64,000 nucleotides of DNA, from contig CASETE010000012.1 of the NCBI GenBank assembly GCA_949290785.1, positions 431-64,430 on the forward strand, read 5' to 3'. This DNA comes from an uncultured Pseudomonadota bacterium. GTDB taxonomy: Bacteria; Pseudomonadota; Alphaproteobacteria; Rs-D84. Positions 16,649 to 30,047 of the stretch are shown one piece after another. The first letter of the stretch is position 1. The number at the start of each line of letters is the position of its first letter. The notes beneath the pieces are model-generated. The model worked only from the letters and a program-made list of their open reading frames with translations, did no database searches and was not told where the DNA came from. The position numbers and the translations under genes were made by a program.

Positions 16649-17797
16649 TTAAAAAATTATCTTCAGATTTAATTTTCCCGTATGCGCAATATATTCAGAA
16701 CGCAAGTCCAAATTATATGATATACCAGCAGAAAATGACGTTGCATATACGTTTATCCCCAGTCCTCCGTTAAATGCAGCCCGATGCGGAATTTCTATGG
16801 GAATGTCATAAACACTGTAATCAATTAACTGAACCGATATATTATCCGTACCGTTGCTGATAAAATCGTAACTGCCACCCATGTGCATGTCCGGACGAAT
16901 AATAAAATCACTGCCCTTGAAATCAAAGCCGACTTTAACGCCTGCGAACCCAGTTAAAAAGTTATACCACCAATCGTCAAATTCTTGGGACGCATTATCA
17001 ACATATTTATCTGAATATGTATATAAATATTTAACGCCAACTTGCGGAATTAAAGAAATGCGCCCACGATACATTAAAAAGCCGGTATTTACCTGCCCTG
17101 CAACAAAATCCGTGTCATAAGCACTGTTATCGGGCATCCCAGCAATTGTCTTGTCCATATTCCAACTGGTATGACCGCCGTTTAATCCGACGTTAACAAA
17201 GAAACCACTGTCCGCGACATATTCTGTAAACATTGTAATGCTGTTACTGGTGGCATCTGCATAGACCTTTGTATCTTGCGTATCTGTCATGCTGCGCGTA
17301 TAAGACACCCCCAGCTGCCAACCGTTTGATATAAAACCTTTGGCGCTGATATAAAAACCGGTATTTCGCGTATCAAAAGAACCGTTATTATCCGAGTCAA
17401 ATTCTGCAAAAGACCCAAAAACCTGACCGTCAATGCTTATCGTCTGATTTTGCACGTTGCAATTCATCAAATTCTTGACGCACTGATTTCTACGCGCCAT
17501 TATTGGCGAGTCTATAACAGAAAACGCCTGTGACACATGGTGGTTGATTTCAAACAAACCTATTGCACTGGTATTAAAGGCCAAAATAGAAACCGCATCC
17601 GATAACGCCAACGTGTTCGTGGTCTGTACATCACGAATATACGCGGCGATTTCACCGCCAACGCCAAGGTTTGCCAGCAAATTCTGCCACGCAGACGCCG
17701 CCTCTACTAAATAATCCGCCGGATATAAATTCTGTGCTTTTACTGCGCTTGGACAAACGCATAAACCTGTACAAAATATATATAAAATATTTTTCAT
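16649..17797 (-). CDS. Autotransporter beta-domain outer membrane protein
   Basis: Signal peptide ending VKA/QN. The C-terminal ~270 aa show alternating beta-strand pattern ending ...KLNLKIIF (terminal aromatic). Confidence 0.7.
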   Translation of the reverse strand: MKNILYIFCTGLCVCPSAVKAQNLYPADYLVEAASAWQNLLANLGVGGEIAAYIRDVQTTNTLALSDAVSILAFNTSAIGLFEINHHVSQAFSVIDSPIMARRNQCVKNLMNCNVQNQTISIDGQVFGSFAEFDSDNNGSFDTRNTGFYISAKGFISNGWQLGVSYTRSMTDTQDTKVYADATSNSITMFTEYVADSGFFVNVGLNGGHTSWNMDKTIAGMPDNSAYDTDFVAGQVNTGFLMYRGRISLIPQVGVKYLYTYSDKYVDNASQEFDDWWYNFLTGFAGVKVGFDFKGSDFIIRPDMHMGGSYDFISNGTDNISVQLIDYSVYDIPIEIPHRAAFNGGLGINVYATSFSAGISYNLDLRSEYIAHTGKLNLKIIF

Positions 17798-19455: not shown

Positions 19456-19532
19456 GCGCCCATGGCTCAATTGGATAGAGCATCTGACTACGGATCAGAA
19501 GGTTGAGGGTTCGAATCCTTCTGGGCGCGCCA
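19456..19532 (+). tRNA. tRNA-Arg (ACG)
   Basis: Cloverleaf with acceptor gcgccca/tgggcgc, D-stem gctc/gagc, anticodon stem tctga/tcaga with loop ctACGga, T-arm gaggg-ttcgaat-ccttc, encoded CCA. Confidence 0.9.
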
Positions 19533-21062
19533 GGAATCAAAATCCCCCAAATTTTCATTAAAAATCGCGAAAATTGGCGACACTTTGGGGGTTCTAAATT
19601 TTTCTTGTTTATCGTATGAAAGTTTGTCTGGAAAACACAAAGTTAGAACCCCGCGTTTTTGATTCAAATCGCCAACCCGCCATATTTCCACCGGATGGAT
19701 TAAAAACTCGCACACTGTATCCAGCGCATAATCAAGTGGCATTTCGTTGGCATCCGTTGCTGTTATTTCGGATTCCAGACGCGTAATTTGCCCTGTAATG
19801 GTATTTATGCGTTCGCGACACATGTTTGCGATTTGTGGGTCATTTGAACTGTTCATCAGTAAATTAAACGCATTGTCCTTTTCTTTGTGCAGTTTGGCGA
19901 TTTCTGTTTGGCGTTGTTTTTGCTGTGCGGCGGTATCCGCGGTTATTTTATTGTATGTATCGGTAATTATTCCACGCGCCAGATTTACCAACGCTTTATC
20001 GGGTGTAATAGAACGCAGCAAACTTTCCATATCTGCGTGCAAATCATCGCGGCGTATTGATTTGCTGTGCATCGGACAATTTTTATTATAGCAGTGATAA
20101 TACATATAGCGTTTGCCACATTTACCGCGCGGTTTGTCTGCGGTCAATGGGCGACCACATGCGGCACATAATACCCAACGGCGCAATGGAAACGTCTCGT
20201 CATTCATATTGTGTTTGCGCCCACGCGTGGCCGATTTTTTACCATGCAGGCGGTCTTGTATCATTTGGAAAGTATCAATGCTGATTATTGGTTCTATGTG
20301 CCATTGCTGATATGGTATGCCCCATTGTGGGTATCCAAACCAACCGGTGTATTTTTCGTTTTTTAACATATTCTTTACAAAGTTGAGTGTCAACTGTATT
20401 GGACGCCCAAAAGAATCAATCAATATGGCACTGCGCATGCTTTCCATAACAGCCTTTTGTGTTGCCAGCCGTCCATATGCAAATCCCTCTAATGCCTCTT
20501 GTATAAATGTGGCGGTTGGGTCAAGCCGCACCCAATGAACCCGACCTTGGGTGCGGACTTTTTTATACCCCACGGGTGCATTTAATACCCAATACCCCTG
20601 TTTGGCATGTTCCATCATATTTGTTTTTGTGCGGTCTTTATTTTTTTGACGTTCATATTGGGCAACCGCAGCAGACACATATTCTATCAATTCGCTTTCT
20701 GCCGTTTCATCCATTTGCATGGTGACACTTTGAACAAGGTGGCCATGCTTCTTCATTTCTTGTCTAAATGTCGCATATAGGGCTGCATTTCGCGCAAAAC
20801 GGTTTATATCGTATGCCAACACAATATAAGGTGTTTTGACATGCCTTAAAAAGTTTAACATTTCATTAAACACGGGGCGATTTGCATCACTGCCAGACAT
20901 TCCGGGTTCTATATAAACAGTTTCAACAGGATATCCCTTGGTGCGCGCCCATGCCCGACATTGTTGTTCTTGGCTGTCCAGTCCGTTGCCTTCGGTGACT
21001 TGTTTTCGACTGGATACACGGCAATATATAATTACTTTTGGTGTAAATGCTTTTGTTTCCAT
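19488..21062 (-). CDS. Large serine recombinase (resolvase catalytic domain + recombinase domain + zinc ribbon + coiled coil)
   Basis: N-terminus VIIYCRVSSRKQ...YDINRFARN carries the catalytic Ser. The centre has C-x2-C...C-x4-C (LCAACGRPL...YYHCYNKNCP) and the C-terminus is coiled coil. The last 15 codons (WRAQKDSNPQPSDP) are encoded by the antisense of the tRNA-Arg 3' end. Confidence 0.9.
   Translation of the reverse strand: METKAFTPKVIIYCRVSSRKQVTEGNGLDSQEQQCRAWARTKGYPVETVYIEPGMSGSDANRPVFNEMLNFLRHVKTPYIVLAYDINRFARNAALYATFRQEMKKHGHLVQSVTMQMDETAESELIEYVSAAVAQYERQKNKDRTKTNMMEHAKQGYWVLNAPVGYKKVRTQGRVHWVRLDPTATFIQEALEGFAYGRLATQKAVMESMRSAILIDSFGRPIQLTLNFVKNMLKNEKYTGWFGYPQWGIPYQQWHIEPIISIDTFQMIQDRLHGKKSATRGRKHNMNDETFPLRRWVLCAACGRPLTADKPRGKCGKRYMYYHCYNKNCPMHSKSIRRDDLHADMESLLRSITPDKALVNLARGIITDTYNKITADTAAQQKQRQTEIAKLHKEKDNAFNLLMNSSNDPQIANMCRERINTITGQITRLESEITATDANEMPLDYALDTVCEFLIHPVEIWRVGDLNQKRGVLTLCFPDKLSYDKQEKFRTPKVSPIFAIFNENLGDFDSWRAQKDSNPQPSDP
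19513..19532 (+). repeat. attL core (3' 20 nt of tRNA-Arg)
   Basis: Identical to 25362-25381. Confidence 0.8.
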
Positions 21063-21473
21063 TGTTTTTGAGCCTCCAATACCAATGTATGAATTATCGG
21101 ATTCAGCGCTGAATAAATCTGCCTTATTTGGTCGTCATTGAACCGTTCGTGCCCAGCCCCCATTTGTTTCCTGCACCATTCAACACTTCTTTCATACATC
21201 GGCATCTTTACTCGTTTATCTATACTAATCCAGTCTTTTCTGCACTTATGCCTGTTATATATTCAGTATGTGTGCGGATTTTGAAATTCGCAACAAAAAA
21301 TCCGCAAAAAATTTGCGTAATATCAATATATTTTTCTTGATTTTTGAAAATCCAGCATAACAGCGCTGTTCATAAAATTGCTTGCACGGGATTTTTGTCC
21401 GTGATAAAGTAATTTTGACATGGCGGTTGCCGTGTTGGGCGTCAGAACCCATTTATACTCGGTGTCCGTGGGG

Positions 21474-21506
21474 ACAAAAAAAGCCTCCAATCATCATGGT
21501 TGGAGG
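21474..21506 (-). terminator. Hairpin + U-run on minus strand (also element 1 of a plus-strand leader structure)
   Basis: cctccaa-N9-ttggagg is preceded on the plus strand by an A7 run, so it reads as a T-run after the hairpin on the minus strand. Confidence 0.5.
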
Positions 21507-21563
21507 GCGGCGAATATATTGAATAAGCCCGCTATTTTCCGAGTATTATAGTTCTGAACCTCC

Positions 21564-21591
21564 AACCACCCGCTTTGTCAGGTGGTTTTTT
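21564..21591 (+). terminator. Leader terminator upstream of the island lipoprotein operon
   Basis: aaccacc-cgctttgtca-ggtggtt followed by tttt, ending 28 nt before ATG 21619. Confidence 0.5.
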
Positions 21592-21618
21592 GTTTGAACA
21601 AACAAGGGAGTTAAAACA

Positions 21619-22215
21619 ATGAAAAAAATATTTTTAATGCTGGCTATGTTAGCAGGATTGGGTGCATGTGCGTCTGGTATGCATGACGAAGTAATCGCAC
21701 GCAGCGATGAATTATCATCACGCCCATCGTGGGTCAAGGATGATGACCCCATAGAAGTAAAAAATGGCGATATGTTTGTGACCAGTATGGCAACTGTGCG
21801 CAGCGACCGTGCCAATATTGCCCAAGGATACAGAATAGCCGAAAATCAGGCAAAAACAGACTTGTCCAATGCGATAAAAACAGAAATCAAAACAAATTTT
21901 GTTGATGCCCAAGAAGGTGTTGAAGGCGACCAATATCGCACAGAATTTTTATCCATTGAAAAAAGTGAAATCGCATTTTCTGGTTTAACGCCTGCAAATC
22001 GTTATTGGGAAAAAGTATTGGTGACAAATGCTGATGGGGATAAAGAAATGGAATATCGTTTTTATGTTCGCATGAAAATCAAAGAATCTGATTTCAAAAA
22101 ACAGATGAACGATTTCTTGAACGGGAACAAAGGTCTGTCCGCGGAATTTAATAAACGCGTGACGGATACTGTTAATGAATTTACTATGTCCCACACCACC
22201 AGCACGGCAGAATAA
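21619..22215 (+). CDS. Lipoprotein, LPP20/FlgP-like (tentative)
   Basis: Lipobox LAGLGACAS with RBS AAGGGAG. The mature part shows an alpha/beta pattern with A.......A.......L...I (RIAENQAKTDLSNAIKTEI), as in LPP20-type lipoproteins. The family call is by eye. Confidence 0.65.
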   Translation: MKKIFLMLAMLAGLGACASGMHDEVIARSDELSSRPSWVKDDDPIEVKNGDMFVTSMATVRSDRANIAQGYRIAENQAKTDLSNAIKTEIKTNFVDAQEGVEGDQYRTEFLSIEKSEIAFSGLTPANRYWEKVLVTNADGDKEMEYRFYVRMKIKESDFKKQMNDFLNGNKGLSAEFNKRVTDTVNEFTMSHTTSTAE

Positions 22216-22217
22216 TC

Positions 22218-23936
22218 ATGAAAAAGTTGTTGTATATCGTGTTGTGCATTGGCGGCATCAGTGCCGCCAGTGCGGGGGATTGTGATTGGGCCACGGTCAC
22301 CCCACCAGACGACGCAAAGTATAAATATTTTGTGGCCAAATCGTATTCTGAAACCAGCGCAAGCGATGCCGCCAACAAGGCGGAACAAGATATAGACGCA
22401 CAAATTGGGCGTCTGTTTGGTACAAAACTGGATGTTCAATCAGAGTTTTATTCGGATGAAATCGGTGCGTCTGGCACCACCCGTTCGTATGAACGCGCCA
22501 TCGGTATGATAACATTAAAGGGGCTGGAACGGCAGCGCAGCGATGTTGAAGAAACAACAGATGGTTGGACAGGTTGCGTTCAATACAGATACTTAAAATC
22601 AGAAATAAATGCTGAAAAACAACGTCTGCAAAGTATGTCATCCGATGAATTGCAGGCATCTTTAAGATTTACAGAAGTTGTCGGCGATACACAATGCCGT
22701 GGAACGCCCGTAGAAATTGTGACTGTGCCTGCTGGGGCATATGTGACCATAGACAATGGCAGGTATCAGGGCTCGGCACCAATAAAATTTGGCAATGTAT
22801 GCAACGGCAAATATACATTGGAAATCACAAAAGAAAACTATGAACCCATAACGGAACAATTAATCGTGCCAACATCTGGCCGAATAACCAAAACATTAAA
22901 ACGCGGCACCAAGACAATCACGGTGCGTACCAGTTTGGGCGATTCAAATATCGCGGTTAATGGTGTTGATTATGGTAAAGAGCCAATTAAATTTAACGCG
23001 CCATTGGGCATAGAGCAAAGCATAACCGCCACCAATGCCGAGGCAGCACAAGTCACCCAAACGCGTACATTTTCATATGAATCAGATGATGAATACACGA
23101 TATCTATGTCTAAATTGCCGGGGAGGATAGATTTTTCTGCTTTTAAGGTTCGTAATCCTGGTGTTGAAATCAAGGTGGACGGCAATACCTTGACAGGTAA
23201 TGTTAGCAAGGAGTTGTCATCTACCGAGACGCATAAGGTTAGTTTCTCGAAAAGTGGTTTTTATAACATAACCGACAACATAGAAGTTACAGGTGGAGAA
23301 ACAATATATTATCCCAGTCAAACATTACAATTTTCAAAACACCCTGATGCAACAAGCGGTTTGTTTGGTGGTCTGGGGGTAAGTGCAGGCAGCGGTACAT
23401 TTGGGTACAATTTTGAGCTTGGTATAGACTATAAAACAAAGTATTTTTACACCGGTGTCGGTGCCCAAATAAATTATATGAAGTTGTCAAAAGCAACAAT
23501 GACATATGATTATTTCTTTTCTCATACCGCGGATATAGATATGTCTTATTGGGAGATACTATATCTTAATTTGGGCTTTAATGTTGGACGAAAATTATCA
23601 ATTTTTGGCATTGGTTCTCTTGGGCTATTAAGTATAAACGCGTTGAACAGTGCGACATCAGCCAGTTTGAATGTAAATGATAAATTAAAACCAATGTTCA
23701 GATATGGTCTGGGGTTGCAATATTCTATTCCATTGGGGCAAAGTGGTGAATGGGGGATACGATTGTCTTATTTGACGGGTAAAACACATTTGTCGCCATC
23801 AGATATTACTTTTAGCCATATGAATAACTATGACAACAGTACAATTGATGTAGACAATCAAGTATTTGATAGTTATCCCGAACAAATAAGCAGTTTCAAC
23901 ATCACATTTTTCTTGCGTGGTTTTACTGCATTATGA
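22218..23936 (+). CDS. Secreted PEGA-domain protein with C-terminal outer-membrane beta-barrel
   Basis: Signal peptide, then an N-terminal module resembling the upstream lipoprotein (ASDAANKAEQDIDAQIGRLFG). PEGA-like repeats follow (VEIVTVPAGAYVTIDNGRYQGSAPIKF...YTLEITKENYEP; ITVRTSLGDSNIAVNGVDYGKEPIKF). The last ~200 aa have alternating beta-strands. The start codon is 3 nt after the upstream stop. Confidence 0.7.
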   Translation: MKKLLYIVLCIGGISAASAGDCDWATVTPPDDAKYKYFVAKSYSETSASDAANKAEQDIDAQIGRLFGTKLDVQSEFYSDEIGASGTTRSYERAIGMITLKGLERQRSDVEETTDGWTGCVQYRYLKSEINAEKQRLQSMSSDELQASLRFTEVVGDTQCRGTPVEIVTVPAGAYVTIDNGRYQGSAPIKFGNVCNGKYTLEITKENYEPITEQLIVPTSGRITKTLKRGTKTITVRTSLGDSNIAVNGVDYGKEPIKFNAPLGIEQSITATNAEAAQVTQTRTFSYESDDEYTISMSKLPGRIDFSAFKVRNPGVEIKVDGNTLTGNVSKELSSTETHKVSFSKSGFYNITDNIEVTGGETIYYPSQTLQFSKHPDATSGLFGGLGVSAGSGTFGYNFELGIDYKTKYFYTGVGAQINYMKLSKATMTYDYFFSHTADIDMSYWEILYLNLGFNVGRKLSIFGIGSLGLLSINALNSATSASLNVNDKLKPMFRYGLGLQYSIPLGQSGEWGIRLSYLTGKTHLSPSDITFSHMNNYDNSTIDVDNQVFDSYPEQISSFNITFFLRGFTAL

Positions 23937-23993
23937 GACAAACATGCCAATCATTAACAATGGTACAAAAGACCCTATAAAACATAATAACAC

Positions 23994-24215
23994 ATGGAGA
24001 AAACAACAATGAAAACACCAGAATACACAGAACAGAAATCATTGGCAGATATGCTCGGTAAGACTAATATCTTACTGACTGCGATCGTTATATTGTTGGC
24101 GGTTGGTCTGATTGGTGATGTGTTGACATATTTCAACATCATAACACTGCCAGATCACATATACCATGGTTTTAATGCCATTTATGACCGAATGGGACGG
24201 ATGCGCGTGTATTAA
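23994..24215 (+). CDS. Small single-pass membrane protein (73 aa)
   Basis: TM segment ILLTAIVILLAVGLIGDVL. The C-terminal codons fall inside repeat copy 1. Confidence 0.45.
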   Translation: MEKTTMKTPEYTEQKSLADMLGKTNILLTAIVILLAVGLIGDVLTYFNIITLPDHIYHGFNAIYDRMGRMRVY

Positions 24216-24384
24216 ACACAATTGCCGACAGAATGCGACAAATAGCCGACAGCGCGTTTTTGCTGTTTTATGGTATGACGGTGGCATAAATTCGTTTTCG
24301 TTTGACGTCGGCCACGACAATGCGACTGTCGCTGTGTTATAAAATACACGCTGGGGTCATTTGTCACAGTGCCACATCATAACC
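24203..24384 (+). repeat. Island-internal repeat, copy 1 (with ~87-bp internal insertion)
   Basis: Segments 24203-24238 and 24326-24384 align to 24859-24953 (gcgcRtgtattaaacaYaaKtgccgacagaatgcga ... tgtcgctgtgttataaaataYRYgctggggtcatttgtcaca). Confidence 0.75.
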
Positions 24385-24476
24385 CGTGGCACTGATATTT
24401 AAAAAAAAGGAGATTTGATGGCAAAAAAACAAGAATAGTACTGGAAAGAAAAAGAAATGCATATGTTGGCAGGCTA

Positions 24477-24830
24477 GTGTCCTCGTCCGTTGTTATTGAT
24501 GATGCACTCAGTTTGAAACTTAAAAACGGCGAATCTAAAATAATTGAAGTGCCAAACGGTAAAACAGAGTTTGATATTCAAATATCAAATTCTTATAGTT
24601 TTCATATAAAAAACATACCGAGCGTGAAAAAAATTATATTACAGTATCGTCTTTTTGGCATTTCTTGTTCAGTAATATATCAAGATGGTCACGAATTTAA
24701 TGCTCCAAATAAAAATTCTGTGACATCTGTTAACAACACAATCATTTTAATAACCTCCTTGGTTATGCTGCTATTATTTTTACGTGGGCTGGGAAAGGCG
24801 ATAGCGGACATGATTTGGTTGTTTGGATGA
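24477..24830 (+). CDS. Hypothetical protein with C-terminal TM; 5' end probably disrupted by a frameshift in an A7 tract
   Basis: The ORF frame is open from 24396. The only good RBS+ATG (AAGGAG-N6-ATG at 24418) is in another frame and joins it if the A7 run 24423-24429 gains one A. Confidence 0.5.
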   Translation: MSSSVVIDDALSLKLKNGESKIIEVPNGKTEFDIQISNSYSFHIKNIPSVKKIILQYRLFGISCSVIYQDGHEFNAPNKNSVTSVNNTIILITSLVMLLLFLRGLGKAIADMIWLFG

Positions 24831-24858
24831 GCCAAGAACAATAACCCAATTCCGTGGG

Positions 24859-24953
24859 GCGCATGTATTAAACATAAGTGCCGACAGAATGCGATTGTCG
24901 CTGTGTTATAAAATATGTGCTGGGGTCATTTGTCACAATCCCACACCATAACC
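24859..24953 (+). repeat. Island-internal repeat, copy 2
   Basis: See copy 1. It is followed by C7 (24966-24972) and C6 (24978-24983) homopolymers. Confidence 0.75.
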
Positions 24954-25222
24954 ACATACCACATCCCCCCCACCATCCCCCCTAACATGTGTATCGCATC
25001 TGAATAACATCTGTGTGGATAAGCATGCTTTTATTATGGCAATGGTGTGAGTTCTAATCTTTCGTGGCGATTAAAGCAAACAAAACTGCGTGTCAAATAT
25101 CTGATTTAACGATTGCTTGGATGCACGCCAATATGTTTGATTTGCATATATATTGCGCACTGCGGCGTAATTCCGTGAACAAAGGGTTCGGACTTTGGAT
25201 ACCAATGGCGCGCCAGAAATTT

Positions 25223-25244
25223 AAACCGGCTGTATGCCGGTTTT
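25223..25244. terminator. Orphan hairpin terminator in the non-coding right arm of the island
   Basis: aaaccggc-tgtat-gccggtttt. Confidence 0.5.
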
Positions 25245-25361
25245 AATTTTGTTGCAAGCCCAAGGATTTGAACCCGACACAGAGGGTGCGACAATGAGTA
25301 GTTAAGCCAAGCTTTTGCGCAGGCGAAACGTTACGAATGCCCCGCAGGACACAGGCCGAGG

Positions 25362-25381
25362 GAATCCTTCTGGGCGCGCCA
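25362..25381 (+). repeat. attR core (orphan copy of tRNA-Arg 3' end)
   Basis: Exact 20/20 match to 19513-19532. The upstream gaggg also matches the tRNA T-stem, but the ttc of the T-loop is missing, so this is not a functional tRNA. Confidence 0.8.
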
Positions 25382-25403
25382 AAATAAATTTTATATTTCT
25401 TTA

Positions 25404-25432
25404 TAAAAAATAAAACCGCCGTAAAGGCGGTT
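25404..25432 (-). terminator. Terminator of cassette 1
   Basis: Minus strand reads aaccgcc-tttac-ggcggtt followed by a T-run, directly after the B1 stop. Confidence 0.75.
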
Positions 25433-25435
25433 GGT

Positions 25436-25747
25436 TTAACTTACGTTTGTACAAGGCGGCTCAAATTTATAAGTACCCGTTGAATCTGAACTGCCTGTCG
25501 AATAAAATATACAAAATGGATCATAATATGAAGATGGTACACATAAACCTTCTATACATTCTGGCACGTCTGCTATTGATTCAAACAAATTTATTTTTGT
25601 GGTGCCGGTTGGGCATGTACTACCACTTACAAGTCTGATTCCAACAACAGATTCCAATGTTGTTAATCCACAAGGACAACTTAAAGCAAATGCTTGCGAA
25701 AATGGAATTAATATGACGAATGCAAATATGACTATTATTTTTTTCAT
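25436..25747 (-). CDS. Secreted Cys-rich protein, family B (B1; cassette 1, position 3)
   Basis: Signal peptide MKKIIVIFAFVILIPFSQAFA. Motifs STCPTGTT, FCIFYS and DSTGTYKFEPPC are shared with B2 and B3. Confidence 0.8.
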   Translation of the reverse strand: MKKIIVIFAFVILIPFSQAFALSCPCGLTTLESVVGIRLVSGSTCPTGTTKINLFESIADVPECIEGLCVPSSYYDPFCIFYSTGSSDSTGTYKFEPPCTNVS

Positions 25748-25762
25748 TTTATTTATCCATTA

Positions 25763-26170
25763 TTATCGTTTTAATGTTTTTAATATGTTGTTTTTAAAAG
25801 TGGAATTGTTGTAAAACAACTGGGCACAACGTTGTGCACATGCGGCCTCGCACCAATCAAACTGCCCCCAAGATGTTGAGGTCATACGAACAAAATCGGA
25901 TATTGCCGGATATATCATTTTACACCAACAATAATAAGATGAACTGGATACCGTTGGGTTGGATGCCACCCTTGTAGAAGAACTGGAACATACACCAACA
26001 CCACGAATTGTTATTCCACTGCATGTAATCGTCCAATCTGGTTGATAGGTCGCAACATTCGGCGAAGTACACGATGTTGCGGATGTCATTTCCAGACACA
26101 TTGACACCGCCCAACTGGGTACAGACCATATAAATAAAAACAACATAAATATTAATTTTATTCCTTTCAT
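25763..26170 (-). CDS. Secreted Cys-rich protein, family A subtype II (A1; cassette 1, position 2)
   Basis: Start is at the internal ATG 26170 (MKGIKLIFMLFLFIWSVPSWA) with RBS AGGTGAAAGA. Motifs IRGVGVCSSS, YYCWCKM and WCEAACAQRC. Closest paralog by eye is 29194-29667. Confidence 0.8.
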   Translation of the reverse strand: MKGIKLIFMLFLFIWSVPSWAVSMCLEMTSATSCTSPNVATYQPDWTITCSGITIRGVGVCSSSSTRVASNPTVSSSSYYCWCKMIYPAISDFVRMTSTSWGQFDWCEAACAQRCAQLFYNNSTFKNNILKTLKR

Positions 26171-26192
26171 TTCTTTCACCTGTACGAATTGA

Positions 26193-26615
26193 TTAAAATA
26201 CATAATATTCTGTAGCACACCTTTGTGGACATTTCGCAGCACAAGTCTTATTATCGCCATAACTTTGTAGATATTCCCAATCTGTTATTTCTGGTCTGAT
26301 TGTCTTGCACCAACAATGCAGCGTATTTGGTGAATTGCCTAATTTTACCTGACTTGCCGACGTAAAGCACATGCCAAAGCCAAAAACCTGCATTCGTGGT
26401 CCCAGATACGTAGCATTATTGCTGTCATAATATTGAATTTCTTTTGTCCATATGTAATTACTTCCGCTGTACGACATAACCTTGAAAGAAGCACCAACTA
26501 TAGACACCCTTTGTGAAAAATTATTTAAACACATTTTTATGGTTGTTGCGGAAAATGCGGGTGTTAATGCCGCCATACATATCGCGCTGAACAAAAACAA
26601 TCTTGTTAATTTCAT
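26193..26615 (-). CDS. Secreted Cys-rich protein, family A subtype I (A2; cassette 1, position 1)
   Basis: Start is at ATG 26615 (MKLTRLFLFSAICMAALTPAFS). Motifs KMCLNNF, FGFGMCFTS, HCWCKT and TCAAKCPQRC. Confidence 0.8.
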   Translation of the reverse strand: MKLTRLFLFSAICMAALTPAFSATTIKMCLNNFSQRVSIVGASFKVMSYSGSNYIWTKEIQYYDSNNATYLGPRMQVFGFGMCFTSASQVKLGNSPNTLHCWCKTIRPEITDWEYLQSYGDNKTCAAKCPQRCATEYYVF

Positions 26616-26663
26616 TGAAGTACTGACCCCCACATATATTAGAAACCTTTATATCGTAACCTT

Positions 26664-26693
26664 ATGATAAAAAAAACATACATTTAAAGTCAA
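26664..26693 (-). promoter_or_regulatory. Sigma70-like promoter of cassette 1 (TTGACT-18-TATCAT)
   Basis: Minus strand reads tcttgactttaaatgtatgttttttttatcat. It is homologous to the cassette 3 promoter region. Confidence 0.55.
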
Positions 26694-26743
26694 GACATAA
26701 AAACATTTTCCAAAACATAAATTTTTTTATATCATACTTCAAT

Positions 26744-27055
26744 ATGAAGACTTTAACCGCCAAAGATATTTTAGAATTACCCGGAACGCCATTCCAACGC
26801 GATGTATGGTGCGCCTTGGTTAAAATACCGTACGGCGAAACCCGAACGTATCGGCAAGTTGCCGCTATGTCTGGGCACCCCAACGCCGTACGCGCAGTCG
26901 CAAACGCAATCGCAAAAAATCCCCTGCCCCCGATTATACCTTGCCACAGGGTTATACGCAGCGACGGTGGCATCGGTGGATATTCTGCACCAGGTGGAAT
27001 AAAGCAAAAAGCACGCTTGTTACACCAAGAAAAAATAACAAGTATAAAAAATTAA
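26744..27055 (+). CDS. ogt: Methylated-DNA--protein-cysteine methyltransferase (C-terminal DNA-binding/active-site domain only, 103 aa)
   Basis: TPFQRDVWCALVKIPYGETRTYRQVA...NPLPPIIPCHRVIRSDG contains the PCHR active site. Confidence 0.85.
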   Translation: MKTLTAKDILELPGTPFQRDVWCALVKIPYGETRTYRQVAAMSGHPNAVRAVANAIAKNPLPPIIPCHRVIRSDGGIGGYSAPGGIKQKARLLHQEKITSIKN

Positions 27056-27078
27056 AACGTCATGATTAATTTTTACCG

Positions 27079-27108
27079 TTGACAACGTTGTTGAAATTAA
27101 ACTACAAT
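27079..27108 (+). promoter_or_regulatory. Sigma70-like promoter of cassette 2 (TTGACA-18-TACAAT)
   Basis: Consensus -35 at 27079-27084 and -10 at 27103-27108. RBS GGGGAGGAA precedes ATG 27198. Confidence 0.6.
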
Positions 27109-27197
27109 AATCATAACAAAATACCAAAAAGCGATTTGTTTGAATTATATTCCTTGCAAATCTGCATTTTTGTCTGAAAGGGGAGGAAACATATCAC

Positions 27198-27788
27198 ATG
27201 AAATCATTGACAACATTTGCATTTACGATATTTGCGTGCTTGATTCTGCAACCTGCCTTTTCAACCACAACTGGAACAATAACAATGTGCGTTCCTGATT
27301 ATAGTAGATGGTCAGGATGGCAAAATTATACCGGTATGGGCGGTGATACAAGTGGTTATAAATACCAATATAGTTGGAGCGCAACAGCACAAAGAAAATA
27401 CATTACAACAGGGCTCATTGAAAATATTAGCGCCAAGGGCGTTGGATACTGTTCAACAAAAAGTGGCAGTCCAGGTGGCACTGCAGAATCTTTGGATGAA
27501 CGAAATCGCCCATGTAACGACGCTTATTACTGTTGGTGCAAGATGACATCACCATTGGATTCCCAGTGGGTGTTCTTGAAAGATTACAACGATGAATTTA
27601 CCAGTTTATATACAGAGTCTAGCCAATCTGGCAACCCACAAGTGTGGGTAAATGCTGGTAAAGAAGTATCAGATCAATATCTAACCAGTTATACATTTTG
27701 TCAGAAATATTGCGCAAAGGAATGTGCGGATGATTTTAAGAAAGGGGGCTCTGTAATACGCGCACCGTTGTTTAATTCTGTTCAGTAA
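27198..27788 (+). CDS. Secreted Cys-rich protein, family A subtype I (A3; cassette 2, position 1)
   Basis: Signal peptide ...LILQPAFS. Motifs TMCVPDY, AKGVGYCSTK, YYCWCKM and FCQKYCAKEC. This is the largest member (196 aa). Confidence 0.8.
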   Translation: MKSLTTFAFTIFACLILQPAFSTTTGTITMCVPDYSRWSGWQNYTGMGGDTSGYKYQYSWSATAQRKYITTGLIENISAKGVGYCSTKSGSPGGTAESLDERNRPCNDAYYCWCKMTSPLDSQWVFLKDYNDEFTSLYTESSQSGNPQVWVNAGKEVSDQYLTSYTFCQKYCAKECADDFKKGGSVIRAPLFNSVQ

Positions 27789-27813
27789 AACAAAAATAGT
27801 ACAGGAATATAAA

Positions 27814-28302
27814 ATGAAAATATTACATTTATCGATTACAGTGTTTGCATCTATGCTTTTGATATATGAATCATACGCAACAACATTTGCTTCATCATCA
27901 GAGGCGAAAATTTGTTTGACAGATTTTAGTAATGCAACAGCATGTGACAATGCAATTTATGGCGAAGCACAAATAGATAGACAAAACCAATGGTCGTTCA
28001 CTTGCCAATTAGGTGGTAGTTCATTGGATTTTAAGGGCTTGGCATTTTGCGCTTCGGAAGAAGCAAGTCCGGGAACCGTAGCAGATACAATTTCCAGCGG
28101 ACCTTATGATAATTTGCCTGAAAACTGCTGGTGCAAAATGACATATCCATTTGCATCGAAATGGGTTTACGCAGGACAAGCAGGAGGCGGTAGATATTAC
28201 TGTTTCAACATTTGTGCTTCTTATTGCAAATCCGCACTTTCACAAAATGATAGTTATAACCCAATGCGTACATTAATGTTAACAAATCCGGAAAATCAAT
28301 AA
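27814..28302 (+). CDS. Secreted Cys-rich protein, family A subtype II (A4; cassette 2, position 2)
   Basis: Signal peptide present. Motifs KICLTDF, FKGLAFCASE, NCWCKM and YCFNICASYC. Confidence 0.8.
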   Translation: MKILHLSITVFASMLLIYESYATTFASSSEAKICLTDFSNATACDNAIYGEAQIDRQNQWSFTCQLGGSSLDFKGLAFCASEEASPGTVADTISSGPYDNLPENCWCKMTYPFASKWVYAGQAGGGRYYCFNICASYCKSALSQNDSYNPMRTLMLTNPENQ

Positions 28303-28320
28303 ATAATATAGGATATAAAA

Positions 28321-28671
28321 ATGAAAAAATATATCTGTTATACAATATTTATGTTCGTCGGTATCTTGTCGGCAAATGCAGACCCGTTTATTCCGCCTGC
28401 ATCCTGCCCCGCCGGAATGCGTCAAATTACAAGACCCTATATCCTTGCAGATACAAGTTGCGGCACCGGTCAAATAGAGGCAAATATTGCTGCTACGTCT
28501 TGCTATAATTTTTATACTAATGCAAGCAATACAACTGTTAATCCAGCCAGAACGCCATCTGTATGCTTTATGTATATTCCCACGAATTTAAAATTCAAGG
28601 ACGACAAGGGCTACTATATATTTAACAACGGTATTTGCACCGTTGATGGACCAGTACAACAACAACCATAA
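28321..28671 (+). CDS. Secreted Cys-rich protein, family B (B2; cassette 2, position 3)
   Basis: Signal peptide ...GILSANA. Motifs ASCPAGM, TSCGTGQ, VCFMYI and DDKGYYIFNNGIC. Confidence 0.75.
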   Translation: MKKYICYTIFMFVGILSANADPFIPPASCPAGMRQITRPYILADTSCGTGQIEANIAATSCYNFYTNASNTTVNPARTPSVCFMYIPTNLKFKDDKGYYIFNNGICTVDGPVQQQP

Positions 28672-28674
28672 AAA

Positions 28675-28697
28675 AGTGCGAATGTCGCACTTTTTTA
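28675..28697 (+). terminator. Terminator of cassette 2
   Basis: agtgcg-aatgt-cgcact followed by ttttt. Confidence 0.75.
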
Positions 28698-28721
28698 TCA
28701 TGACAGTTAATATTTTTCGTC

Positions 28722-28751
28722 TTGACTTGAATTACTGTTTTTATTTATCAT
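28722..28751 (+). promoter_or_regulatory. Sigma70-like promoter of cassette 3 (TTGACT-18-TATCAT)
   Basis: tcttgacttgaattactgtttttatttatcat has the same architecture and flanks as the cassette 1 promoter. Confidence 0.55.
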
Positions 28752-28794
28752 TCAACATGAAATATAACCATTATATCGGGGGGCATTATATAAA

Positions 28795-29175
28795 ATGAAA
28801 TTAAAAACATTTTCTTGTTTCATGTTTTGCCTGATAATTAGCGCCCCCGCATTTGCAGAAATCACACGATGCATAAATCCGTTTTCCAATCGTGAAATGT
28901 ATACTAAAAATACAGATTCGTTGACAACGCCGAGACGATATATGTGGAGTCAAATTGTACAGCACGGCTCATGGACAACCAATATACAAGGTATCAGCAT
29001 TTGTTCTACATCAAGTACAACTGTAGAGGTTCCAATAAACGCAACACCAGCAAAATATTGTTGGTGCAGAAAAATAACACCACGGGTAGGCAACTGGACA
29101 TATTCAACAACTAGTTTTGACGACACAGCAAGTTGTTTCAGCGGTTGTGCCGAGGCATGCCGTGAGTCTATGTAA
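28795..29175 (+). CDS. Secreted Cys-rich protein, family A subtype I (A5; cassette 3, position 1)
   Basis: Signal peptide ...IISAPAFA. Motifs TRCINPF, IQGISICSTS, YCWCRK and SCFSGCAEAC. Confidence 0.8.
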   Translation: MKLKTFSCFMFCLIISAPAFAEITRCINPFSNREMYTKNTDSLTTPRRYMWSQIVQHGSWTTNIQGISICSTSSTTVEVPINATPAKYCWCRKITPRVGNWTYSTTSFDDTASCFSGCAEACRESM

Positions 29176-29193
29176 AAATACAGGAATACAGTT

Positions 29194-29667
29194 ATGAAAA
29201 TGTCAAAATTTATGTTCATACTATTTATGGTCGGCGCATATACTGACCCGGCGTCCGCGGTTTCTGTATGCGCAAGGGTGACAACCGACACAAACACCAC
29301 ATGCACCAGTCATACACCAACCGGTACAACTTCTACAACACCTGATTGGACTGTAACATGTACAAACACAACCAATAGCACAACAGATACAATAACAGTA
29401 AAAGGTATCGGCATATGTTCTAATCAAACAACCTTGTTTAATGAAACTATTACTTATCCTACTGTACAAACACCCGATGAAACGCCTATAACGTCTTATT
29501 GTTGGTGTAAAATGTTATCACCGGCCATATCAAAATTTGTACGTATCACGAATAATGCATGGGACCAATATGACTACTGCTATCCACGTTGCGCCAAAGT
29601 ATGCGCAGAAACGTTTCAGAACGATACCAGCTTTCGCGCAAGTATATTGAATAATTTATCACTATAA
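29194..29667 (+). CDS. Secreted Cys-rich protein, family A subtype II (A6; cassette 3, position 2)
   Basis: Signal peptide ...DPASA. Motifs VSVCARV, VKGIGICSNQ, SYCWCKM and YCYPRCAKVC. The Thr-rich N-terminal region is near-colinear with 25763-26170. Confidence 0.8.
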   Translation: MKMSKFMFILFMVGAYTDPASAVSVCARVTTDTNTTCTSHTPTGTTSTTPDWTVTCTNTTNSTTDTITVKGIGICSNQTTLFNETITYPTVQTPDETPITSYCWCKMLSPAISKFVRITNNAWDQYDYCYPRCAKVCAETFQNDTSFRASILNNLSL

Positions 29668-29680
29668 TAAAAGGCACAAT

Positions 29681-29998
29681 ATGAAGAAAATTTTTTTCTT
29701 GTTACTGATTTTACCAACCAGCGCCCTTGGGATTGGACCGCAAAGTTGTACCGAGGCAACTGGCACACTCAATTTTGACCAAGTAACAGAGCCGGGGTTA
29801 ATCGTAACAAATGGCAGTTGTCCAACCGGAACAACAACAGTACTTGAAACAACGGATAATATCAACTGCCCGTCTGCTGTAAGTTCTCTATTATTTACAC
29901 AAACATTTTGCATCTTGTACGAACCGGCAAATACGAATATCACAGATTCTACTGGGACCTATGAATACGTAAATGAAGTGTGCCCGTTTGCTGAATAA
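29681..29998 (+). CDS. Secreted Cys-rich protein, family B (B3; cassette 3, position 3)
   Basis: Signal peptide ...PTSALG. Motifs GSCPTGTT, FCILYE and DSTGTYEYVNEVC. Confidence 0.8.
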   Translation: MKKIFFLLLILPTSALGIGPQSCTEATGTLNFDQVTEPGLIVTNGSCPTGTTTVLETTDNINCPSAVSSLLFTQTFCILYEPANTNITDSTGTYEYVNEVCPFAE

Positions 29999-30022
29999 AT
30001 CCACGTGCATTACAAAAAATTA

Positions 30023-30047
30023 AGAGGCGATGTAAACGCCTCTTTTG
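30023..30047. terminator. Bidirectional terminator (cassette 3 / M23 peptidase)
   Basis: agaggcg-atgtaa-cgcctct with flanking A and T runs. Confidence 0.75.

Follow-up and report, generated by a model that had tools for sequence, protein, structure and literature searches.

What does a gut bacterium with a minimal genome do with several divergent copies of genes for small, exported, cysteine-rich proteins? The question is raised by a stretch of 64,000 nucleotides from an uncultured alphaproteobacterium of the order Rs-D84 (assembly GCA_949290785.1, contig CASETE010000012.1, positions 431 to 64,430 of the forward strand), referred to below as the window, in which positions 25404 to 30047 hold three cassettes of three such genes each. 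The bacteria of Rs-D84/Candidatus Enterousia are widespread in the guts of humans and farm animals and have so far been seen as uncultured organisms only, and the genomes of the order are mostly <1 Mb. Respiration and most biosynthesis are missing from them, and partner dependence is predicted (PMC12306168). An earlier note on this DNA, made from its letters alone, had taken the three-gene cassette to be a candidate secreted module. We find that the unit conserved across genomes is instead a pair of genes, A followed by B, and that some of these genes differ strongly between strains of one species, a combination that we tentatively relate to recognition outside the cytoplasm.

Results

All-against-all BLAST and alignments placed the nine proteins in two unrelated families, A with six genes and B with three. 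The nine open reading frames (ORFs) of 103 to 196 amino acids (aa) listed in the earlier note were all found at their coordinates and on their strands. Every one is intact, and together they form three operon-like cassettes with the gene order A-A-B and intergenic gaps of 22 and 15, 25 and 18, and 18 and 13 bp, in agreement with the 13 to 25 bp proposed. Cassette 1, on the minus strand, consists of an A gene of the type called A-I (26193 to 26615, 140 aa, 7 cysteines), an A gene of type A-II (25763 to 26170, 135 aa, 9 cysteines in the mature part) and a B gene (25436 to 25747, 103 aa). The other two cassettes lie on the plus strand, cassette 2 with A-I at 27198 to 27788 (196 aa, with an insertion of ~40 aa ahead of the cysteine-bearing helix described below), A-II at 27814 to 28302 (162 aa) and B at 28321 to 28671 (116 aa), and cassette 3 with A-I at 28795 to 29175 (126 aa, 7 cysteines), A-II at 29194 to 29667 (157 aa, 9 cysteines) and B at 29681 to 29998 (105 aa). 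Mature sizes are ~110 to 170 residues for A and ~70 to 95 for B. The six A proteins share 22 to 39% identity and an invariant series of C, W, G, C, CWC, P and C-x3-C-x3-C, and the three B proteins share 25 to 36% identity, with conserved cysteines, TG and D..G.Y, so that the paralogy within each set, as judged from the sequences, is real but old. The idea that A and B are distant homologues of each other was rejected, as a profile-profile comparison aligned their signal peptides only.

The occurrence of the genes in other genomes defined the unit more clearly. A motif-guided scan of 185,579 species-representative genomes, with the A-II subfamily as the query, gave 39 loci, all in metagenome-assembled genomes (MAGs) labelled Alphaproteobacteria, Proteobacteria or Candidatus Enterousia, with chicken, sheep, deer and horse guts among their sources. 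One contig from the scan was 94% identical to the window, the housekeeping proteins of the window were 55 to 95% identical to their counterparts in several of the MAGs, and three further assemblies of this species carry all nine cassette genes intact. Family hidden Markov models were applied to every ORF in the fetched loci, which came from ~20 related MAGs, with the window species set aside. Among the 53 A genes found there, 41 were followed directly by a B gene, 5 by another A gene and then B, and 1 lay at a contig end, and the six without a separate partner comprised a B-A fusion, a tandem A-A gene, a stalk-plus-A gene and three genes of a divergent sub-branch. On this gene order the conserved unit is the A-B pair, and the A-A-B arrangement is a local elaboration. 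The linkage of A to B that the earlier note had expected in other genomes is thus tight, while its trio gives way to a pair as the functional unit.

Nor is the module confined to this locus, being part of a large family that is spread through the lineage. Modules were located at many different housekeeping sites, and one MAG had at least nine of them. In locus L032 of a relative, the orthologous site between the M23-peptidase and O6-methylguanine-DNA methyltransferase (MGMT) genes holds a single module, which argues that the window species expanded an ancestral one. In the neighbourhoods of the fetched loci, no third linked gene family or secretion system was found adjoining the modules, and a toxin gene was never found next to them. 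A 949-aa protein with a signal peptide is encoded <4 kb from A-B modules at four loci (L018:11785-14634; also L005, L010 and L036). It has a low-complexity N-terminal region rich in Ala, Thr and Pro and cysteine-rich motifs ('CRAKYEGCMDAFCMLDNETGGRCICSD'), and the protein of L018 had no Pfam match.

The earlier note had argued that the components work together, and this is strengthened by the existence of a conserved B-A fusion. The fusion protein, of 234 aa from its likely start, consists of a B domain, a linker and an A domain that has no signal peptide of its own. Its cluster numbers 30 members and was found on numerous independent contigs, and there are relatives that are 76% and 45% identical. 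In locus L014, the fusion gene (L014:2134-2853, minus strand) lies directly downstream of a separate A gene (L014:2857-3384, minus strand), resulting in a locus composition of two A and one B, as in the window trios. In all three orthologues of the fusion (P0034, P0091 and P0092), only the second conserved cysteine of B is lost.

The two families differ in how fast they diverge. Paralogs within genomes averaged 45% identity for A and 69% for the cognate B, and the B identity was the higher of the two in all 72 comparisons. Between strains, where the window was compared with two other assemblies of the same species, the flanking proteins were 97 to 100% identical, with a synonymous divergence (dS) of 0.02 to 0.16. 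The corresponding identities were 62 to 71% for the A-I protein of cassette 1, 58 to 60% for its B protein, 59 to 61% for the A-II protein of cassette 2 and 83% for its A-I protein, with dS values of 0.33 to 1.3 in these four genes and 0.4 to 1.3 in the first three. The ratio of nonsynonymous to synonymous divergence (dN/dS) was 0.23 to 0.56 in the variable cassette genes, compared to 0.0 to 0.27 (mostly <=0.11) in the flanks. The genes of cassette 3 were 94 to 100% identical between strains. The strain differences are mosaic, with the signal peptides and the C-terminal scaffold conserved. In the A-II protein of cassette 2, the identity drops abruptly from 100% to ~50% after residue 38, and in the A-I protein of cassette 1, which lacks both the optional cysteine pair and the last helix of other A proteins, residues 30 to 78 are hypervariable, seven alleles having 44% identity and indels over this segment and 96% and 85% identity on either side of it. 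With both dS and dN raised, the pattern points to old divergent alleles that have been exchanged by recombination and maintained in the population. Hypervariability at the strain level also fits the diversifying interaction factors that the earlier note had named among the possible roles.

The cysteine scaffold of A is conserved. In 125 distant single-domain representatives, seven cysteine columns are at least 98% conserved and two more behave as a co-varying optional pair, and 95 of the 125 have nine cysteines after residue 22, which served as an approximate signal-peptide cut for the A cysteine counts. The pattern seen in the window is thus kept among homologs. The optional pair is present in all position-2 (A-II) and absent from all position-1 (A-I) proteins of the window, and A-I and A-II are by their sequences two versions of one family and not separate families. 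The A-I protein of cassette 2 has one extra cysteine, in 'RPCND' where other strains read 'GFEN'.

The B family has five conserved cysteines and two 'C-P-x-G-[YT]' motifs that resemble Ephrin_rec_like, GCC2_GCC3 and cEGF repeats. Weak matches to cEGF were found in 9 of 45 B proteins and to the CC-domain in 6 of 45, with best E values of 0.001 to 0.004. We rejected the assignment of B to the Ephrin_rec_like or cEGF repeats, the matches lying far below the curated cut-offs and five conserved cysteines being an odd number. The B protein of cassette 1 has an extra cysteine pair compared to its alleles in other strains (7 versus 5 cysteines). At some loci (L005:10320-10922, L020:10326-10934, L018:10362-10865 and L037:10653-11162), the B proteins carry an extra N-terminal cysteine-rich segment, for example 'CIANRDCASLVCSQKSGELLRYC...', that approximately doubles their size.

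The history of the three cassettes could be recovered in part. In a bootstrapped neighbor-joining tree with outgroups from the clade, the A-I proteins of cassettes 1 and 3 were sisters (87% bootstrap), as were their A-II proteins (93%), which bears out the claims that proteins at the same position are more alike and that the trio was duplicated as a unit for these two cassettes. For cassette 2 neither claim was supported. Clades of all position-1 and of all position-2 proteins had bootstrap values of 8% and 0%, respectively, so that their monophyly is not supported and cassette 2 was left unplaced, and the best BLAST match of its position-1 protein was its own position-2 neighbour. Duplication of a whole trio is therefore demonstrable for cassettes 1 and 3 only.

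The A domain also occurs outside the small proteins. An exhaustive HMMER search of 1.84 billion representatives with the A profile gave 1,464 clusters (50% identity) at E <= 1e-3 and 678 at E <= 1e-10. Most are proteins of ~145 aa, and some are signal-peptide-bearing proteins of 755 to 6,218 aa with four to seven A domains each. When five large proteins were compared to Pfam, the Listeria-Bacteroides repeat (Flg_new) gave a strong match in two, one of which also has an Endonuclease I domain, and a weak sub-threshold match in one, and the other two had no match. A secreted protein of 1,669 aa with one A domain near its C terminus is encoded at 1052 to 6061 of L043 (IMGVR_UViG_3300028797_006173), a contig that is catalogued as viral and has housekeeping-like genes similar to those of the Enterousia locus L042. 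Rather than a phage, this contig may represent a piece of a chromosome, possibly one that includes a prophage portion. Two variants without a B partner are P0059 (L039:9050-10171), a tandem double-A protein of 373 aa, and P0060 (L030:9434-10261), a 275-aa protein in which a repeat-containing stalk ends in an A domain. B was never seen in the large A-domain proteins, and the B profile did not match their cysteine-rich repeat regions. On these architectures, A is a reusable extracytoplasmic module.

The predicted structure offered no link to a known family. In the AlphaFold2 model of the fusion protein, the A half has a predicted local distance difference test (pLDDT) score of 70 to 89 and forms six β-strands followed by two helices, with CWC placed in one of the strands and C-x3-C-x3-C in the first helix. 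The model suggests a disulfide staple that joins the helix to the strand, and A is probably a new cysteine-stabilised fold. Foldseek searches with the fusion model, of which the A half alone is confident, gave best matches at E = 0.37 (TM <= 0.17) in the PDB and E = 0.30 in BFVD, and the A and B profiles had no match at E <= 1 among PDB sequences. The nine window proteins gave nothing better than E = 0.15 in Pfam and no match in NCBIfam, PHROGs or PADLOC, and there was no credible Pfam match for the 53 A and 45 B members from the clade. In Pfam, no A protein matched a defensin family, and the single Defensin_4 match (E = 0.0089, sub-threshold) was to one member of B. The cassette families had no match in 50,697 phage genomes, and the single matching contig in IMG/VR was L043, which looks chromosomal. 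A weak match to the Giardia VSP family of Pfam (E = 0.02) belonged to a different small protein in L031. In the literature, we found no paper that describes either family, and every named member is annotated as hypothetical or uncharacterized. The earlier note, which had not recognised the families, was right in this respect, and of the findings that it had named as contrary to its proposal (matches to known families, unlinked A and B genes, or a lost cysteine pattern), none was encountered.

The N termini of all nine products consist of MK(K) and a hydrophobic core, which makes them Sec-type signal peptides as the earlier note had stated. They end in AFS/A, SWA/V, AFA/L and the like, the first cysteine follows 3 to 9 residues past the likely signal peptidase I site, and the residue before it is M, I, R or V. 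No lipobox ([LVI][ASTVI][GAS]C) was found when the nine N termini were read, and the products were rejected as bacterial lipoproteins on this ground. All nine genes start with ATG and have a purine-rich, GG-containing motif upstream, but the AGGA-type ribosome-binding site claimed for each is present in its strict form in only ~4 of 9. The sigma-70-like promoter sites assigned to the cassettes are present and among the top scorers of the region, at 26664 to 26693 on the minus strand for cassette 1 (TTGACT-18-TATCAT, a match to the consensus only), at 27079 to 27108 on the plus strand for cassette 2 (TTGACA-18-TACAAT, 11/12 matches) and at 28722 to 28751 on the plus strand for cassette 3 (TTGACT-18-TATCAT). 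The number of promoter-like sites overall, however, is no higher than in shuffled sequence (18 matches versus 17.8 expected), so that it is the placement of these three alone that is suggestive. Terminator-like sites were more frequent than expected (11 versus 4.6), and a hairpin was confirmed at the end of each cassette: at 25414 to 25432 on the minus strand for cassette 1 (AACCGCC...GGCGGTT, with a T-run after it on that strand), at 28668 to 28698 between cassettes 2 and 3 (a terminator-like palindrome with a 14-bp stem, not assigned to a strand) and at 30022 to 30044 (listed on the plus strand), where a bidirectional terminator is common to cassette 3 and the convergent M23-peptidase gene.

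The nine ORFs do not fill the whole region as had been thought, since an MGMT-type gene that is unrelated to the cassettes (26744 to 27055, plus strand) lies between cassettes 1 and 2. On the other side, ~6 kb of the window (19456 to 25400) adjoining a tRNA-Arg gene (19456 to 19532) is missing from the otherwise syntenic contigs L001 and L004 of the same species. This stretch encodes a large serine recombinase (19488 to 21062, minus strand, with Resolvase, Recombinase and Zn_ribbon_recom domains), a PEGA-domain protein (22218 to 23936) and several small unannotated ORFs, and it is probably a small integrated mobile element. A 382-aa protein with an autotransporter β-domain is encoded at 16649 to 17797 (minus strand), ~8 kb from the cassettes, which indicates that a type V export route exists in the organism.

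Discussion

The reading that we favor, and consider quite possible without calling it probable, is that exported, disulfide-stabilised A:B complexes are strain-variable binding or recognition factors that act outside the cytoplasm of a partner-dependent bacterium. Each cassette would be a small operon for Sec-exported, disulfide-stabilised proteins acting jointly outside the cytoplasm, in which one or two A subunits present a hypervariable segment within a conserved scaffold of 7 or 9 cysteines and so would give specificity, while the small conserved B would be the constant partner, serving as an adaptor, stabiliser or tether. Such complexes might work like an adhesin or a receptor-recognition protein, with partner cells, host surfaces or further ligands outside the cell as their targets. 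Joint action of A and B is argued for by the conserved B-A fusion. We infer the formation of disulfides, the physical association of A with B, the exposure beyond the periplasm and the binding function.

Several observations weigh against this interpretation. Its main weakness is the lack of an evident way through the outer membrane. In the A/B proteins we saw neither a lipobox nor an anchor for the outer membrane nor an autotransporter domain, and no secretion genes were seen linked to the modules. With a Sec-type signal only, the proteins may stay in the periplasm. The fusion could partly reflect adjacency, as its order is B-A where that of the genes is A-B, which means that its B and its A come from two successive modules. 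A simple one-to-one intermolecular disulfide between A and B was rejected because the fusions lose the second B cysteine and keep all nine A cysteines, and the cysteine counts are odd in both families (7 or 9 in A and 5 in B). The whole-gene dN/dS is <1, and recombined old alleles also occur at other loci under balancing selection, such as those for immunity or toxins. The AlphaFold2 models of B are unreliable, with a pLDDT of 37 for a stand-alone window B and <50 for the B half of the fusion. Some likenesses of the larger proteins to known families lie below the curated thresholds, both the weak matches of the 1,669-aa protein of L043 to LRR_5 (BspA-type), DUF285 and Ephrin_rec_like and that of the P0060 stalk to tail fibres (phrog_892, E = 4.5e-5).

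Multigene families of variable surface or secreted proteins are known from reduced-genome, host-dependent microbes, among them Msp2/P44 of Anaplasma, Vsp/Vlp of Mycoplasma and VSP of Giardia. The A/B modules resemble these in that a small genome contains many paralogs, conserved segments enclose a hypervariable region, and strains differ strongly, with signs of recombination. Multi-copy paralogs, hypervariability in a conserved frame and strain variation are features that they share with the variable surface antigens, a functional class that implies no homology and to which exposure at the surface or release would also belong. In A and B, a Sec-type signal is what the sequence shows, and no anchor or export system was identified. 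They differ from all three families in that there is no sequence or fold relationship, in being a two-protein module and in having a Sec signal only, without a membrane anchor. Nor is an arrangement of one expression site plus silent cassettes indicated, because every A/B copy has an intact ORF and a promoter-like site of its own.

Two other known systems share single features with the modules. As in phage tail-fibre tips with their small chaperone or adhesin genes, and in the tail-fibre-like adhesive fibres of predatory bacteria, a small and more conserved partner gene lies downstream of a variable binding domain, and in P0060 alone the A domain ends a stalk that is weakly tail-fibre-like. 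Unlike in those systems, both A and B have Sec signal peptides and are found in a context of housekeeping genes, and the tail-fibre and assembly-chaperone identity was rejected for the signal peptides and for the lack of a PHROG match to the nine proteins and of any phage-genome match. A predicted strand bears the invariant CxC and a predicted helix the CxxxC(xxxC), which recalls the CS-αβ defensins and scorpion toxins and is a geometry in which a helix can be stapled to a strand by two disulfides. In A, however, the order is reversed, with CxC ahead of CxxxC, and the domain has ~120 aa, a six-stranded sheet, two helices and 7 to 9 cysteines compared to the ~35 to 50 aa and three or four disulfides of CS-αβ proteins. 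With the motif order reversed and no family or fold match, membership in the CS-αβ superfamily was rejected.

Among the rival explanations, the one that comes closest is that A, B or both are periplasmic immunity proteins or inhibitors directed against antibacterial effectors or host lytic enzymes, with arrays of divergent copies that broaden protection as in orphan-immunity islands. Orphan immunity genes in acquired interbacterial defence clusters need no toxin-like partner, and the small Sec-exported products with no evident anchor or export system, the multi-copy arrays, and the alleles that are highly polymorphic between strains with raised dS would all suit such a role. No toxin gene adjoined any module examined, though, and PADLOC and the immunity families of Pfam gave no match. 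The strict A-B pairing, the conserved B and the B-A fusion are not the usual pattern either, and it would be atypical for an immunity protein to be repeated four to seven times in giant proteins, to end the P0060 stalk and to occur in the large protein of L043. It is because of these giant-protein architectures that we disfavor immunity and think it unlikely. The same architectures bear on a structural role, in which A and B would be disulfide-cross-linked proteins of the periplasm, the outer membrane or a cell coat and would owe their variability to surface pressure from phages or immunity, not to ligand specificity. The abundant, conserved and odd-numbered cysteines are compatible with intermolecular cross-links, many copies are kept in a minimal genome, and variation between strains is typical of exposed structures. 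Coat proteins, however, usually come in small numbers and at high expression, unlike the nine or more divergent paralog pairs seen here, no anchor, β-barrel or S-layer-type domain was found, and the reuse of A in giant multi-domain proteins fits a binding module better, all of which makes an envelope role improbable, and more so than immunity.

The least likely of the three is that A is a secreted, bacteriocin-like toxin used against competitors or host cells, either as a two-component toxin with B or with B as its periplasmic immunity protein, and polymorphic in the way of other toxin systems. The products are small, cysteine-rich and secreted, the gene pairs vary between strains, and the staple of a CxC strand and a CxxxC helix in the predicted structure recalls the stabilisation of defensins and scorpion toxins. 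As in polymorphic toxin-immunity pairs, a large gene is followed by an adjacent smaller one, A is found at or near the C terminus of some large proteins, and the alleles are polymorphic with recombination. Cognate immunity proteins normally co-diversify with their toxins, whereas B is more conserved than A throughout, and a conserved B-A fusion would mean an immunity protein joined permanently to its toxin. Up to seven tandem copies of A in a single protein do not suit a toxin, and nine or more modules are many for a genome of <1 Mb without export or immunity genes. There was, moreover, no match to a toxin, pore-former or bacteriocin family and no structural neighbour in the PDB or BFVD. The toxin-immunity reading is disfavored by the conservation of B, by its fusion to A and by the tandem repeats of A, and the specific identity as a polymorphic toxin-immunity pair was rejected, with no toxin or immunity domain in addition to the greater conservation of B in every comparison and the fusions.

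We return to recognition as the preferred explanation, of which a more far-reaching version can be formulated that we find rather doubtful. The modules would then be an undescribed recognition system, in which a disulfide-stabilised heterodimer or a complex of two A and one B is built on a new fold, the recombining segment of A sets the specificity for partner or host, B couples the complex to the cell, and the system is the main means by which partner-dependent Rs-D84/Enterousia bacteria choose and hold their partners. Both families are undescribed and the A fold is without a detectable neighbour, while variable multigene families that encode exported proteins in dependent microbes are already known as a general category. 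If the proteins were periplasmic immunity or structural proteins instead, the interest would be more modest. The gains at hand are two new protein families, strain-typing markers for metagenomics and targets for experiment, and the retention, multiplication and strong diversification of a two-gene family in minimal genomes make its products prime candidates for mediators of the Rs-D84 lifestyle.

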